Positions 520 through 33,253 of a stretch of 64,000 nucleotides of DNA are shown in pieces; position 1 is the stretch's first letter, and the number at the start of each line of letters is the position of its first letter. This DNA comes from Escherichia coli (GTDB taxonomy: Bacteria; Pseudomonadota; Gammaproteobacteria; Enterobacterales; Enterobacteriaceae). A program made the position numbers and the translations under genes. The stretch lies in NCBI RefSeq assembly GCF_050920415.1, contig NZ_CP169309.1; one strand, given 5' to 3'. The notes under the pieces were generated by a model. It searched no databases. It saw only the letters and a program-made list of their open reading frames with translations, and had not been told where the DNA came from.

Positions 520-1857
520 ATGTCTTCGGATGCTGATGCTCACAAAGTGGGCTTAATCCCCGTCACCCTGATGGTGTCGGGGAATATTATGGGGTCAGGT
601 GTTTTTCTGTTACCTGCAAACCTGGCCTCCACTGGCGGGATTGCCATTTATGGATGGTTGGTGACGATTATCGGTGCGCTGGGGCTCTCGATGGTATACG
701 CCAAAATGTCGTTCCTCGACCCAAGTCCTGGTGGTTCTTACGCTTACGCCCGCCGCTGCTTTGGCCCGTTTCTCGGTTATCAAACCAACGTCCTCTACTG
801 GCTGGCCTGCTGGATCGGCAATATCGCCATGGTGGTCATTGGCGTTGGATATTTAAGTTACTTCTTCCCGATTCTGAAAGATCCACTGGTATTAACCATC
901 ACCTGCGTCGTGGTGCTGTGGATCTTCGTCCTGCTGAACATTGTCGGTCCGAAAATGATCACCCGCGTGCAGGCCGTTGCCACCGTGCTGGCGCTGATCC
1001 CCATCGTCGGGATTGCCGTATTTGGCTGGTTCTGGTTCCGTGGTGAAACCTATATGGCGGCATGGAACGTCAGCGGCCTGGGCACCTTCGGCGCGATTCA
1101 AAGTACCCTTAACGTTACGCTGTGGTCGTTCATCGGTGTGGAAAGTGCCTCCGTTGCCGCAGGTGTGGTGAAAAACCCGAAACGCAACGTCCCTATCGCC
1201 ACCATTGGTGGGGTATTGATTGCCGCCGTTTGCTATGTGCTCTCCACCACCGCGATTATGGGGATGATCCCTAATGCCGCACTGCGCGTTTCTGCCTCGC
1301 CATTCGGTGATGCCGCACGGATGGCGTTGGGTGACACCGCCGGGGCCATTGTTTCCTTCTGCGCAGCTGCGGGTTGCTTAGGTTCACTGGGCGGCTGGAC
1401 GTTGCTGGCGGGTCAAACGGCGAAAGCCGCTGCCGATGACGGACTGTTCCCACCGATTTTTGCCCGTGTAAATAAAGCGGGTACGCCAGTGGCAGGGCTG
1501 ATTATCGTCGGTATTTTGATGACCATCTTCCAGCTCAGTAGCATTTCGCCAAACGCGACTAAAGAGTTCGGTCTGGTTTCTTCCGTGTCGGTCATCTTTA
1601 CACTGGTGCCATATCTTTACACCTGTGCGGCGTTACTGCTGCTCGGCCACGGCCACTTTGGTAAAGCACGCCCTGCATATCTGGCTGTTACTACCATTGC
1701 CTTCCTCTACTGCATCTGGGCCGTAGTAGGGTCCGGCGCGAAAGAGGTTATGTGGTCATTTGTCACCCTGATGGTCATCACCGCCATGTATGCGCTGAAT
1801 TACAACCGGCTGCATAAAAACCCGTATCCCTTAGATGCACCAATAAGCAAAGATTAA
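520..1857 (+). CDS. adiC: Arginine:agmatine antiporter (APC family)
   Basis: 445-aa polytopic membrane protein; N-terminus [27 protein letters not shown] recognised as AdiC; synteny with adiY. Confidence 0.93.
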
Positions 1858-1883
1858 TTCCCCTTAGTCAAGCAAACATAAAA

Positions 1884-1920
1884 GCCAACCTTAAGAACTT
1901 AAGGTTGGCTTAATTTTGCT
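1884..1920 (+). terminator. Intrinsic terminator downstream of adiC
   Basis: Perfect inverted repeat gccaaccttaag / cttaaggttggc followed by a T-rich tract (ttaattttgcttt), about 30 nt after the adiC stop. Confidence 0.5.
1898..1914 (+). promoter_or_regulatory. Candidate BasR (PmrA) box upstream of eptA
   Basis: CTTAAG-GTTGG-CTTAAT direct repeat (hexamer, 5 bp, hexamer) about 50 bp upstream of the eptA start; resembles the PmrA/BasR consensus YTTAAK-N5-YTTAAK. Confidence 0.5.
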
Positions 1921-1960
1921 TTGCGAGCATATGCGCACTTTGTTCGATGGAAACACCGTG

Positions 1961-3604
1961 ATGTTGAAGCGCCTACTAAAAAGACCCTCTTTGAATTTAC
2001 TCGCCTGGCTATTGCTGGCCGCTTTTTATATCGCTATCTGCCTGAATATTGCCTTTTTTAAACAGGTATTGCAGGCGTTGCCGCTGGACTCGCTGCATAA
2101 CGTACTTGTTTTCTTGTCGATGCCGGTCGTCGCTTTCAGCGTGATTAATATTGTCCTGACACTAAGCTCTTTCTTATGGCTTAATCGACCGCTGGCCTGC
2201 CTGTTTATTCTGGTTGGCGCGGCTGCACAATATTTCATAATGACTTACGGCATCGTCATCGACCGCTCGATGATTGCCAATATTATTGATACCACCCCAG
2301 CAGAAAGTTATGCGCTGATGACACCGCAAATGTTATTAACGCTGGGACTCAGCGGCGTACTTGCTGCGCTAATTGCCTGCTGGATTAAAATCAAACCTGC
2401 CACCTCGCATCTGCGCAGTGTTCTTTTCCGTGGTGCCAATATTCTGGTTTCTGTACTGCTGATTTTGCTGGTCGCCGCACTGTTTTATAAAGACTACGCC
2501 TCGTTGTTCCGCAACAACAAAGAGCTGGTGAAGTCCTTAAGCCCCTCTAACAGCATTGTTGCCAGCTGGTCATGGTACTCCCATCAGCGACTAGCAAATC
2601 TGCCACTGGTGCGAATTGGTGAAGACGCGCACCGCAACCCGTTAATGCAGAACGAGAAACGTAAAAATTTGACCATCCTGATTGTCGGCGAAACCTCGCG
2701 GGCGGAGAACTTCTCCCTCAACGGCTACCCGCGTGAAACGAACCCGCGGCTGGCGAAAGATAACGTGGTCTATTTCCCCAATACTGCGTCTTGCGGCACG
2801 GCAACGGCAGTTTCAGTACCGTGCATGTTCTCGGATATGCCGCGTGAGCATTACAAAGAAGAACTGGCACAGCACCAGGAAGGCGTGCTGGATATCATTC
2901 AGCGAGCGGGCATCAACGTGCTGTGGAATGACAACGATGGTGGCTGCAAAGGTGCCTGCGATCGCGTGCCTCACCAGAACGTCACTGCGCTGAACCTGCC
3001 TGGTCAGTGTATCAACGGCGAATGTTATGACGAAGTGCTTTTCCACGGGCTGGAAGAGTACATCACTAACCTGCAAGGTGATGGCGTAATTGTCTTACAC
3101 ACCATCGGCAGTCACGGCCCGACCTATTACAATCGCTATCCGCCACAGTTCAGGAAATTTACCCCTACCTGCGACACCAACGAGATCCAGACCTGTACCC
3201 AAGAGCAACTGGTAAACACTTACGACAATACGCTGGTCTACGTCGACTATATTGTTGATAAAGCAATTAATCTACTGAAAGAACATCAGGATAAATTTAC
3301 CACCAGCCTGGTTTATCTTTCTGACCACGGTGAATCGTTAGGTGAAAATGGCATCTATCTGCACGGTTTGCCTTATGCCATCGCCCCGGATAGCCAAAAA
3401 CAGGTGCCGATGCTGCTGTGGCTGTCTGAGGATTATCAAAAACGGTATCAGGTTGACCAAAGTTGCCTACAGAAACAGGCGCAAACGCAACACTATTCAC
3501 AAGACAATTTATTCTCCACGCTATTGGGATTAACTGGCGTTGAGACGAAGTATTACCAGGCTGCGGATGATATTCTGCAAACTTGCAGGAGAGTGAGTGA
3601 ATGA
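1961..3604 (+). CDS. eptA: Lipid A phosphoethanolamine transferase
   Basis: Track ORF 1916..3604; start placed at the internal ATG giving [14 protein letters not shown] (547 aa), matching EptA/PmrC as recalled; stop overlaps the basR start (ATGA). Confidence 0.88.
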
Positions 3605-4269
3605 AAATTCTGATTGTTGAAGACGATACGCTGTTATTGCAGGGATTGATTCTGGCGGCGCAAACCGAAGGCTACGCGTGCGATGGCGTGACAACCGCGC
3701 GGATGGCGGAACAAAGCCTTGAGGCAGGTCATTACAGCCTGGTGGTACTGGATTTAGGGTTACCCGACGAAGATGGGCTGCATTTTCTCGCCCGAATCCG
3801 GCAGAAAAAATACACCCTGCCGGTACTGATCCTCACCGCTCGCGATACGCTGACTGACAAAATCGCCGGACTGGATGTCGGGGCTGACGATTATCTGGTG
3901 AAGCCTTTTGCGCTGGAAGAGTTACACGCCCGTATCCGCGCCCTGCTACGACGCCATAATAATCAGGGCGAAAGTGAGTTGATTGTTGGCAATCTGACGC
4001 TGAATATGGGTCGCCGTCAGGTATGGATGGACGGTGAAGAGTTGATTCTGACGCCCAAAGAATATGCTCTGCTATCACGGTTAATGCTTAAAGCAGGTAG
4101 TCCGGTGCATCGGGAAATTCTCTACAACGACATCTATAACTGGGACAATGAACCCTCGACCAACACCCTGGAAGTGCATATCCACAATCTGCGCGACAAA
4201 GTGGGCAAAGCCCGTATCCGCACCGTGCGCGGCTTTGGCTATATGCTGGTCGCGAATGAGGAAAACTAA
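3601..4269 (+). CDS. basR: Two-component response regulator BasR (PmrA), OmpR family
   Basis: 222 aa; N-terminal receiver domain ([29 protein letters not shown]) and C-terminal winged helix; operon with eptA and basS. Confidence 0.93.
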
Positions 4270-4278
4270 TTGAATCTG

Positions 4279-5370
4279 ATGCGTTTTCTGCGCCGACCAA
4301 TATCGCTGCGCCAACGGCTGATATTGACCATTGGGGCCATTTTGTTGGTGTTTGAGTTGATCAGCGTCTTCTGGCTATGGCATGAAAGTACCGAGCAGAT
4401 TCAGCTGTTTGAGCAGGCGCTACGCGACAATCGTAACAACGATCGCCACATCATGCGTGAGATCCGCGAGGCGGTCGCCAGCCTGATTGTCCCTGGCGTC
4501 TTTATGGTCAGCCTGACGCTATTTATCTGCTATCAGGCGGTACGCCGCATCACCCGCCCGCTGGCGGAGCTGCAAAAAGAGCTGGAAGCGCGCACCGCCG
4601 ACAACTTAACGCCCATTGCCATTCACAGCGCCACCCTCGAAATCGAAGCGGTGGTTTCAGCGTTAAACGATCTGGTCAGTCGCCTGACCAACACGCTGGA
4701 TAACGAAAGGTTGTTTACCGCTGACGTCGCGCACGAACTGCGAACGCCACTGGCGGGGGTGCGTTTGCATCTGGAACTGCTGGCGAAAACGCATCACATT
4801 GATGTAGCACCGTTAGTGGCACGACTTGATCAGATGATGGAGAGTGTCTCCCAGCTACTGCAACTGGCGCGTGCCGGACAGTCATTTTCTTCCGGTAATT
4901 ATCAACATGTAAAACTGCTGGAAGATGTCATTCTCCCCTCGTATGACGAACTCAGTACCATGCTCGACCAGCGCCAGCAAACCCTGCTATTGCCAGAGAG
5001 CGCCGCCGACATCATCGTTCAGGGTGATGCAACCCTGCTGCGGATGTTATTGCGAAACCTGGTAGAAAATGCCCATCGTTACAGCCCGCAAGGCAGCAAC
5101 ATTATGATTAAGCTGCAAGACGATGGCGGAGCGGTCATGGCCGTTGAAGATGAAGGACCGGGTATTGATGAGAGTAAATGCGGGGAGTTGAGTAAAGCGT
5201 TTGTACGAATGGACAGCCGTTATGGCGGGATTGGTCTGGGGTTAAGTATTGTCAGCCGCATTACACAGTTGCATCACGGGCAGTTTTTCCTGCAAAACCG
5301 GCAAGAGACTTCCGGCACGCGGGCCTGGGTACGGCTGAAGAAAGATCAGTACGTGGCAAACCAGATATAA
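4279..5370 (+). CDS. basS: Sensor histidine kinase BasS (PmrB)
   Basis: 363 aa from the first ATG (track ORF begins at an upstream TTG); H-box ADVAHELRTPLAG and ATPase motifs; follows basR. Confidence 0.9.
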   Translation: MRFLRRPISLRQRLILTIGAILLVFELISVFWLWHESTEQIQLFEQALRDNRNNDRHIMREIREAVASLIVPGVFMVSLTLFICYQAVRRITRPLAELQKELEARTADNLTPIAIHSATLEIEAVVSALNDLVSRLTNTLDNERLFTADVAHELRTPLAGVRLHLELLAKTHHIDVAPLVARLDQMMESVSQLLQLARAGQSFSSGNYQHVKLLEDVILPSYDELSTMLDQRQQTLLLPESAADIIVQGDATLLRMLLRNLVENAHRYSPQGSNIMIKLQDDGGAVMAVEDEGPGIDESKCGELSKAFVRMDSRYGGIGLGLSIVSRITQLHHGQFFLQNRQETSGTRAWVRLKKDQYVANQI

Positions 5371-5479: not shown

Positions 5480-5496
5480 ATTAAGTGAACCTTAAG
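5480..5496 (-). promoter_or_regulatory. Candidate BasR (PmrA) box for pmrR
   Basis: Minus-strand reading CTTAAG-GTTCA-CTTAAT, about 45-60 nt upstream of the pmrR start codon. Confidence 0.5.
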
Positions 5497-31105: not shown

Positions 31106-33253
31106 ATGAAAAAAGTCGTCACGGTTTGCCCCTATTGCGCATCAGGTTGCAAAATCAACCTGGTCGTCGATAACGGCAAAATCGTCCGGGCGGAGGCAGC
31201 GCAGGGGAAAACCAACCAGGGTACCCTGTGTCTGAAGGGTTATTATGGCTGGGACTTCATTAACGATACCCAGATCCTGACCCCGCGCCTGAAAACCCCC
31301 ATGATCCGTCGCCAGCGTGGCGGCAAACTCGAACCTGTTTCCTGGGATGAGGCACTGAATTACGTTGCCGAGCGCCTGAGCGCCATCAAAGAGAAGTACG
31401 GTCCGGATGCCATCCAGACGACCGGCTCCTCGCGTGGTACGGGTAACGAAACCAACTATGTAATGCAAAAATTTGCGCGCGCCGTTATTGGTACCAATAA
31501 CGTTGACTGCTGCGCTCGTGTCTGACACGGCCCATCGGTTGCAGGTCTGCACCAATCGGTCGGTAATGGCGCAATGAGCAATGCTATTAACGAAATTGAT
31601 AATACCGATTTAGTGTTCGTTTTCGGGTACAACCCGGCGGATTCCCACCCTATCGTGGCGAATCACGTAATTAACGCTAAACGTAACGGGGCGAAAATTA
31701 TCGTCTGCGATCCGCGCAAAATTGAAACCGCGCGCATTGCTGACATGCACATTGCACTGAAAAACGGCTCGAATATCGCGCTGTTGAATGCGATGGGCCA
31801 TGTCATTATTGAAGAAAATCTGTACGACAAAGCGTTCGTCGCTTCCCGTACAGAAGGCTTTGAAGAGTATCGTAAAATCGTTGAAGGCTACACGCCGGAG
31901 TCGGTTGAAGATATCACCGGCGTTAGCGCCAGTGAGATTCGTCAGGCAGCGCGGATGTATGCCCAGGCGGAAAGCGCAGCCATTCTGTGGGGCATGGGTG
32001 TTACCCAGTTCTATCAGGGCGTGGAAACCGTACGTTCTCTGACCAGCCTCGCGATGCTGACCGGTAACCTCGGTAAGCCGCATGCGGGGGTAAACCCAGT
32101 TCGTGGTCAAAACAACGTGCAGGGGGCCTGCGATATGGGCGCGCTGCCAGATACTTACCCTGGCTACCAGTACGTGAAAGATCCGGCTAACCGCGAGAAA
32201 TTCGCCAAAGCCTGGGGCGTAGAGAGCCTGCCTGCACATACCGGTTATCGCATCAGCGAGCTACCGCATCGCGCAGCGCATGGCGAAGTGCGCGCCGCGT
32301 ACATTATGGGCGAGGATCCGCTGCAAACGGATGCGGAACTGTCGGCAGTACGTAAAGCTTTTGAAGATCTGGAACTGGTCATCGTTCAGGACATCTTTAT
32401 GACCAAAACCGCGTCGGCGGCGGATGTCATTTTACCGTCAACGTCGTGGGGCGAGCATGAAGGCGTGTTTACTGCGGCTGACCGTGGCTTCCAGCGTTTC
32501 TTCAAAGCAGTTGAACCGAAATGGGATCTGAAAACGGACTGGCAGATTATCAGTGAAATCGCCACCCGTATGGGTTATCCGATGCACTACAACAACACCC
32601 AGGAGATCTGGGATGAGTTGCGTCATCTGTGCCCGGATTTCTACGGTGCGACTTACGAGAAAATGGGCGAACTGGGCTTCATTCAGTGGCCTTGCCGCGA
32701 TACTTCAGATGCCGATCAGGGGACTTCTTATCTGTTTAAAGAGAAGTTTGATACTCCGAACGGTCTGGCGCAGTTCTTCACCTGCGACTGGGTAGCGCCA
32801 ATCGACAAACTCACCGACGAGTATCCGATGGTACTGTCAACGGTGCGTGAAGTCGGTCACTACTCTTGCCGTTCGATGACCGGTAACTGTGCGGCACTGG
32901 CGGCGCTGGCTGATGAACCAGGCTACGCACAAATCAATACCGAAGACGCCAAACGTCTGGGTATTGAAGATGAGGCATTGGTTTGGGTGCACTCGCGTAA
33001 AGGCAAAATTATCACCCGTGCGCAGGTCAGCGATCGTCCGAACAAAGGGGCGATTTACATGACCTACCAGTGGTGGATTGGTGCCTGTAACGAGCTGGTT
33101 ACCGAAAACTTAAGCCCGATTACGAAAACGCCGGAATACAAATACTGCGCCGTGCGCGTCGAGCCGATCGCCGATCAGCGCGCCGCCGAGCAGTACGTGA
33201 TTGACGAGTACAACAAGTTGAAAACTCGCCTGCGCGAAGCGGCACTGGCGTAA
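31106..33253 (+). CDS. fdhF: Formate dehydrogenase H (selenocysteine-containing molybdoenzyme); in-frame TGA at 31523..31525 decoded as Sec
   Basis: Track ORFs 31106..31525 and 31574..33253 are in the same frame, separated only by one TGA (codon 140); N-terminal Cys cluster CPYCASGCKINLVV; 715 aa total. Confidence 0.93.
31523..31570 (+). other. SECIS stem-loop directing Sec insertion at the fdhF UGA
   Basis: tgacacggcccatcggttgcaggtctgcaccaatcggtcggtaatggc immediately 3' of the UGA, matching the fdhF SECIS as recalled. Confidence 0.85.

Follow-up and report, generated by a model that had tools for sequence, protein, structure and literature searches.

The window analysed here, a stretch of 64,000 nucleotides of Escherichia coli DNA, carries in order the 3' part of adiY, adiC, an intergenic region of 103 nt, eptA, basR and basS, and adiC and eptA are transcribed in the same direction across these 103 nt. 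The genes eptA, basR and basS form a single operon (PMC10962826), in which basR codes for the regulator that binds the box described below and basS for its kinase. The 401 nt around the intergenic element were present in 5,412 of 5,426 complete E. coli genomes, with adiC and eptA as the flanking annotation. The program-made open reading frame for eptA opens at TTG 1916 (562 aa), and a further in-frame ATG lies at 1931. The true start is the annotated ATG at 1961 (547 aa), because the conserved BasR-dependent promoter, with its -10 element at 1925-1930, sits inside the TTG-1916 extension; the 5' UTR would be only about 24 nt long. Coordinates of all features are collected in Table 1.

Table 1. 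Features of the adiC-eptA intergenic region, its flanking genes and the pmrR promoter, in window coordinates.
Feature	Position	Strand	Basis or remark
adiC (arginine/agmatine antiporter), CDS	520-1857	+	Stop TAA 1855-1857; ORF list and RefSeq annotation of identical or near-identical E. coli loci
Spacer after the adiC stop, unconstrained and hairpin-free, ending in A-rich CATAAAA	1858-1881	+	Fold of 0 kcal/mol
Hairpin 5' arm, AAGCCAACCTTAAG	1882-1895	+	Perfect complement of 1898-1911; outside the canonical BasR box
Third TTAA, candidate inverted third half-site or other promoter contact	1891-1894		Alignment A1, columns 16-19
Hairpin 3' arm, CTTAAGGTTGGCTT	1898-1911	+	BasR half-site 1, spacer and start of half-site 2
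BasR/PmrA box	1898-1914	+	Half-site 1 CTTAAG (1898-1903), spacer GTTGG, half-site 2 CTTAAT (1909-1914)
U-rich tail of the putative terminator, TTAATTTTGCTTT	1910-1922	+	Terminator scan; same bases as the box-to-(-10) spacer of the eptA promoter
Extended -10 of the eptA-basRS promoter	1922-1930	+	TGcGAGCAT: TG 1922-1923, hexamer GAGCAT 1925-1930
eptA (phosphoethanolamine transferase), first gene of eptA-basR-basS	1961-3604	+	RefSeq start at window position 1961; ORF list
basR (3601-4269) and basS (about 4270-5370)	3601-5370	+	ORF list; gene order from the literature
pmrR, ORF of 29 aa	ATG 5436 to stop 5347	-	Overlaps the 3' end of basS
Second perfect BasR/PmrA box, CTTAAGGTTCACTTAAT, promoter of the pmrR ORF	5480-5496	-	Consensus match and -10 spacing

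A perfect palindrome downstream of adiC had been noted in a preliminary description of this DNA, as gccaaccttaag (1884-1895) and cttaaggttggc (1898-1909) on either side of aa. Both arms were present at these positions, and the inverted repeat proved longer than described. Its perfect 14-nt arms (1882-1895 and 1898-1911) are separated by 2 nt, and the repeat begins 25 nt past the adiC stop codon. It contains two copies of CTTAAG, at 1890-1895 and 1898-1903, where the description had counted one. Among close-spaced, non-overlapping inverted repeats it ranked first in the 64-kb window. Elsewhere in the window, a 20-bp perfect palindrome (CGTTATTGGTACCAATAACG, 31483-31502) lies within an ORF of 139 aa (31106-31525, + strand).

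Folding of positions 1858-1930 as RNA gave -26 kcal/mol (z = -5.8), a stability reached by none of 200 shuffled sequences, and the stem-loop alone gave -18.8 kcal/mol; in this fold the A-rich and U-rich runs that flank the stem on its 5' and 3' sides pair with each other. A simple terminator scan of the + strand, which required at least 5 T in 8 in the tail, returned 13 pairs (5 of them G-C), a loop of 4 nt and the tail AATTTTGCTT. The tail UUAAUUUUGCUUU satisfies the scan rule yet is broken by AA, and termination may be partial because the U-tract is interrupted in this way and only 5 of the 13 stem pairs are G-C. A scan of 1700-2100 against Rfam at a permissive threshold gave a best score of 22 bits against a gathering score of 50; all matches were at chance level and nothing came near any gathering score, so that membership in a known Rfam RNA family was rejected. 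The hairpin is single-copy, with one locus per E. coli genome (the median of 2 places corresponds to the two strands of the palindrome), which ruled out a REP sequence or any other repeated or mobile element. In the blood isolate E. coli GN04171 (L061, NZ_CP095520.1), an IS1 copy immediately follows ...AAAAGCC, the opening bases of the hairpin (equivalent to window position 1886), and a deletion extends from the remaining hairpin through eptA-basRS to alsA, leaving the genome without eptA and basRS. This homology break at the hairpin is an IS1-mediated deletion and a one-off among the E. coli genomes.

The sequence CTTAAGGTTGGCTTAAT (1898-1914), which had been described as a PmrA/BasR-type direct repeat (CTTAAG-GTTGG-CTTAAT), was indeed an exact match to YTTAAK-N5-YTTAAK with 0 mismatches and a period of 11 bp. 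Its distance from eptA, given earlier as about 50 bp, was confirmed as 46 nt from the box end and 63 nt from the box start to the ATG at 1961. The consensus was found twice in 64 kb against 0.06 occurrences expected, the second match being the promoter of pmrR. The box sits in the place of a -35 element, 10 nt upstream of the extended -10, and in 54 distinct sequences the pattern TGnNAnnAT was conserved at +24 to +32 from the box start, with G at +25 in 91%, A at +28 and T at +32 in 100%, and A at +31 in 93% of them. The spacing from box to -10 was identical at pmrR (CATACT) and at K-12 arnB (TAAAAT). From this layout, transcription of eptA would start near 1937 (about 1936-1938). A consensus scan for sigma-70 promoters over 1600-2200 on both strands found no promoter-like site, as expected because the promoter is activator-dependent. 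The PmrA box has been defined as CTTAAG-N5-xTTAAT, bound head-to-tail by a dimer (PMC3973317), and yjdB/pmrC is an experimentally confirmed PmrA target with CTTAA-N5-CTTAA (PMC1525208, citing Wosten & Groisman 1999); footprinting of Salmonella pmrC is taken here from its citation in PMC1525208 (Wosten & Groisman 1999). In E. coli, pmrC is activated by Fe3+/PmrA (PMC3140997). As judged by conservation, -10 spacing and the literature, 1898-1914 is the genuine and already known BasR/PmrA box of eptA-basRS.

The second box, read from 5496 to 5480, begins 12 nt after a REP-like hairpin (5535-5509) that itself follows the proP stop codon, and its -10 (CATACT) stands at the same distance from the box as at eptA. 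In BL21, at least 126 bp downstream of pmrB are required for colistin resistance (PMC8004244). The +126 primer of that study begins exactly at the pmrR box, and the paper never mentions a PmrA box. Because the primer starts at the box, the 'critical 3' region' of PMC8004244 is probably pmrR together with its BasR-dependent promoter. In the relevant literature CTTAAGGTT was encountered only within the primers of PMC8004244, which are aimed at the pmrR side. Literature searches with the exact 17-mer, with BasR box and eptA, and with adiC, eptA and terminator returned no paper describing the overlap of hairpin and box.

To place the box in a wider setting, 60 eptA loci were taken from one-genome-per-species contigs, and 57 usable Enterobacterales loci were retained. 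The upstream gene was adiC only in Escherichia, Salmonella and most Citrobacter; a ybhK-like gene stood upstream of eptA in Klebsiella, Raoultella, Kluyvera and relatives, and about eight loci had other upstream contexts, the upstream gene being divergent in three. All 57 of these loci had the box CTTAAGGTTnnCTTAA 61-67 nt (mostly 63 nt) ahead of the eptA ATG, a position that was near-fixed across at least 8 different upstream contexts, and the core CTTAAGGTT..CTTAA was invariant or nearly so in the alignment. Salmonella loci carried CTTAAGGTTCACTTAAT or CTTAAGGTTTGCTTAAT, likewise at -63. In some Kluyvera (L032, L033, L049, L057) the ybhK-like ORF extends into the box and is stopped by the TAA within the CTTAAG of half-site 1, some 58-59 nt ahead of the eptA start codon, so that the activator site overlaps a coding sequence. 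One contig titled Chryseobacterium sp. 18061 (L028, CACSKA010000002.1) carries a ybhK-like/eptA locus of Enterobacteriaceae type with an EptA identity of 71% and a typical box; this record is probably mislabelled or contaminated.

Within E. coli, the 42-mer at 1882-1923 was identical in 5,384 of 5,411 genomes, and the surrounding 401 nt showed 95-99% identity in most genomes and 90-95% in 984. Across six Escherichia lineages, variable sites numbered 14 of 27 in the adiC stop and spacer (1855-1881), 1 of 14 in the 5' arm and 1 of 17 in the box. This pattern suggests sharp purifying selection on the 5' arm in Escherichia, with the constraint starting abruptly at the arm. In Escherichia and C. 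amalonaticus the intergenic region measured 98-105 nt, the hairpin formed with the box folded at -15 to -22 kcal/mol, and the part upstream of the arm folded at 0 to -4.8 kcal/mol, which leaves the box-hairpin as the sole intergenic structure.

Outside these lineages the structure proved patchy. The box-hairpin was strong in Escherichia, C. amalonaticus and a few others, and it had decayed to -2.3 to -3.6 kcal/mol in six loci (Salmonella arizonae/diarizonae, C. braakii, C. portucalensis and relatives). All six of these loci carried a REP-like, GC-rich hairpin of -18 to -29 kcal/mol in an intergenic region of 131-147 nt; the REP-like substitutes of Salmonella and the C. freundii group had no U-tracts, and intermediate lineages carried both hairpins. 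Salmonella and many Citrobacter thus retained adiC-eptA synteny with the hairpin/box overlap absent, and the T-rich tail was kept in all species with adiC upstream, even those lacking the hairpin. Changes within the stem included U.G wobbles, which pair only in + strand RNA (L009, L016, L022, L023, L055), and a double change from C-G to A-U (L011, L013, L052). Over 52 Enterobacteriaceae sequences, 76.9% of cells were paired against 74.4% in shuffled alignments and only 2 pairs had double changes; with covariation this weak, a family-wide conserved RNA structure was rejected. On this comparative evidence, the long stem is lineage-specific, not family-wide. Constraint, 42-mer identity, distribution and stem changes taken together suggest that the 5' arm exists in Escherichia to form an RNA hairpin.

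Part of the 5' arm nevertheless appears to be constrained for a reason other than termination, because its inner TTAA (1891-1894) is invariant even where no usable hairpin can form. This third TTAA was present in 52 of 52 Enterobacteriaceae eptA upstream regions, whatever the upstream gene, including species whose hairpin has only 4-6 bp, and it is as strongly conserved as the TTAA core of either half-site (1.4-1.5 bits when 54 distinct sequences, Erwiniaceae among them, are counted). It lies 4 bp upstream of the box, at an offset of 8 bp from the TTAA of half-site 1, and positions beside it (-3 to -1, and -8) vary freely. Read inverted, AACCTTAA mirrors TTAAGGTT of half-site 1. The corresponding position reads ATTG at pmrR and TTAG at arnB (3 of 4), and the third TTAA was therefore rejected as a general feature of BasR promoters. 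Its invariance is explained neither by termination nor by the canonical box of two half-sites. In some Citrobacter the palindrome extends to 16 bp and reproduces the whole box on the other strand. In the window, the second half-site of the mirrored pseudo-box is degenerate (CTTTTA) and a -10 is missing (ACTAAG), and an antisense BasR-dependent promoter was rejected on these grounds.

Taken together, the data make it probable that 1882-1922 does two jobs on two molecules, as an RNA hairpin that ends or stabilises the adiC transcript and as a DNA box for BasR. As duplex DNA, 1898-1914 would serve as the box for BasR~P (PmrA) in the autoregulated eptA-basRS promoter, with a BasR dimer occupying the -35 place, 10 nt upstream of the extended -10, and activating a start near 1937. 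When polymerase arrives from adiC, the RNA of 1882-1911 would fold into a hairpin of 13-14 bp, which together with the U-rich stretch 1910-1922, doubling as the promoter spacer, would end and/or stabilise the adiC transcript and shield the eptA promoter against upstream transcription. The polymerase would in this course cross the entire box and be released at about 1912-1922, within the eptA core promoter between box and -10. In evolutionary terms, the box and the T-rich spacer would be ancient and the outer part of the 5' arm (GCCAAC) a later, lineage-specific addition in Escherichia and a few relatives, by which a pre-existing promoter sequence may have been turned into the 3' half of a terminator.

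The earlier proposal that the same DNA acts as adiC terminator and as BasR site thus stands for the box, on conservation, the -10 and the literature, and stands for the hairpin as a predicted terminator, on substitute hairpins and selection on the 5' arm. The hairpin appears to be the only plausible terminator or 3'-end structure of adiC in Escherichia, because substitute hairpins occur in complementary fashion where it has decayed and because its 5' arm is under purifying selection. Termination of transcription at the hairpin is accordingly a likely prediction, and eptA would thereby be insulated. The gene adiC is induced only under anaerobic acid conditions. For this reason it was unsurprising that, when the adiC 3' end was sought in published 3'-end data, the supplements of Adams 2021 held no entry for adiC or eptA.

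A different function for the hairpin would be that of a REP-like barrier to 3' exonucleases, stabilising the adiC mRNA while transcription is stopped by Rho or further downstream. The substitutes in Salmonella and the C. freundii group, GC-rich and lacking U-tracts, suggest that the conserved need is for a 3' stem-loop as such, and the E. coli stem is itself AT-rich with an interrupted U-tract; the A-run upstream and the U-rich run downstream that pair in the E. coli fold are, however, the typical layout of an intrinsic terminator, and the T-rich tail follows the stem immediately, so that a pure barrier is considered unlikely. It is somewhat less improbable, though still doubtful, that the palindrome serves the eptA promoter chiefly at the level of DNA, with the upstream arm serving as a third inverted half-site, a mirrored box or a contact for another protein and with the RNA hairpin as a by-product. 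Such a reading would account for the TTAA that is invariant in 52 of 52 regions across adiC, ybhK-like and other upstream genes, for the moderately conserved CAACC at -12 to -8, which makes the arm the reverse complement of TTAAGGTT, and for the long palindromes found without adiC upstream (L021 and L028, the latter additionally without a U-tract). Two loci with a divergent upstream gene (L024, L043) retain TTAAG-N3/4-CTTAA, the 16-bp palindromes of several Citrobacter repeat the whole box on the other strand, and domains of the OmpR family are able to bind head-to-head (PMC3973317). PmrA is documented on two direct repeats bound head-to-tail (PMC3973317), however, and the 8-bp offset would put the third TTAA on a different face of the helix from the 11-bp repeat. 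It is precisely in loci with a substitute RNA hairpin that the outer arm has decayed, and the U.G wobbles preserve pairing in RNA while breaking the symmetry of the DNA. The pmrR and arnB promoters do without a third TTAA, and the mirrored pseudo-box of the window lacks both an intact half-site 2 and a -10.

The preliminary description had gone further and suggested a coupling, through the overlap, of acid-resistance read-through with lipid A modification; this claim found no support. In its fullest form this would require a leaky terminator, with acid-induced read-through from adiC into eptA-basRS raising lipid A modification and with interaction between BasR binding and the hairpin. The two genes are co-directional and only 103 nt apart, both are acid-responsive according to the literature, and the imperfect U-tract makes some read-through plausible. 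Overlap alone creates no coupling, however, because the RNA hairpin and BasR binding to DNA act on different molecules, and a perfect 14-bp stem under strong purifying selection favours stopping over passing transcription. Salmonella and many Citrobacter have the synteny without the overlap, and in loci lacking adiC the box is no less conserved. The response of eptA to acid has been put down to low-pH sensing by PmrB (review PMC8147483). Within the literature library that was searched, no paper linked adiC and eptA transcription; a preprint on the sRNA AdiZ was set aside as it concerns the adiA 3'UTR, not that of adiC. Release at 1912-1922, inside the eptA core promoter, would lead one to expect occlusion and not activation. 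Coupling of this kind is accordingly judged very improbable. A terminator at 1882-1922 is more likely to insulate eptA than to couple it to adiC, and at high adiC expression transient occlusion of the eptA promoter, not activation, would be expected.

With the two-molecule reading preferred, the box is already known biology, and the overlapping adiC terminator is a well-supported prediction for Escherichia and a few relatives. The case is one of compact, lineage-specific dual use of DNA and introduces no new regulatory principle. In the evolution of this terminator, a transcription-factor site that was already present would have been taken over as one arm of the stem, and the terminator would be lost again once a REP-like hairpin arrives. 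For practical purposes, a construct or deletion whose boundary falls at the adiC stop, or which cuts into the 5' arm (1882-1895), may affect how the 3' end of the adiC mRNA is formed and also how far the eptA promoter is exposed to transcription from upstream. Beyond the textbook 17-bp box, the conserved promoter module takes in the invariant TTAA 4 bp upstream and the extended -10. It is conceivable, if rather unlikely, that the eptA-basRS promoter of all Enterobacteriaceae has a third, inverted element at this TTAA, to which an additional BasR/PmrA protomer or a different factor would bind; the element, 8 bp upstream of half-site 1, would in many lineages have AACC on its outer side. If so, it would give the autoregulated promoter a property not shared by those of pmrR and arnB, for instance another threshold, damping of feedback or a sensitivity to transcription arriving from upstream, and the Escherichia terminator hairpin would have been built on a pre-existing dyad. 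Of all these features, only the third TTAA might be worth an experiment.

In comparison with known systems, the eptA promoter resembles Salmonella pmrC (yjdB) and the other PmrA promoters (pbgP/arnB, pmrG/ais, ugd and pmrR) in its CTTAAG/xTTAAT hexamers 5 bp apart, and PmrA-activated promoters in having the box in place of the -35, 10 nt upstream of the -10. The E. coli box is orthologous in position to that of Salmonella pmrC, at -63 upstream of the same gene. It differs in that half-site 1 and the spacer GTTGG are exactly complementary to the 14 nt upstream; at Salmonella pmrC the match between the two stretches is disrupted (5 bp plus a mismatch), with a REP-like hairpin farther upstream. 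Like intrinsic terminators that overlap the next co-directional promoter, the adiC structure combines a stem-loop and a U-rich run soon after the stop codon with an A-run upstream, and its U-tract lies in the downstream (eptA) promoter. Unlike them, it has an AT-rich stem (5 G-C of 13 pairs) and a U-tract broken by AA, and the 3' arm of its stem, not just the tail, is the activator site, which means that a transcription-factor consensus fixes the sequence of the stem. The adiC hairpin follows a stop codon as REP-type stabilisers of mRNA 3' ends do, and REP-like hairpins stand at the corresponding site in Salmonella and in the C. freundii group, as well as after proP in the window; unlike REP-type palindromes, the adiC hairpin occurs as a single copy, is AT-rich and has a T-run behind it.
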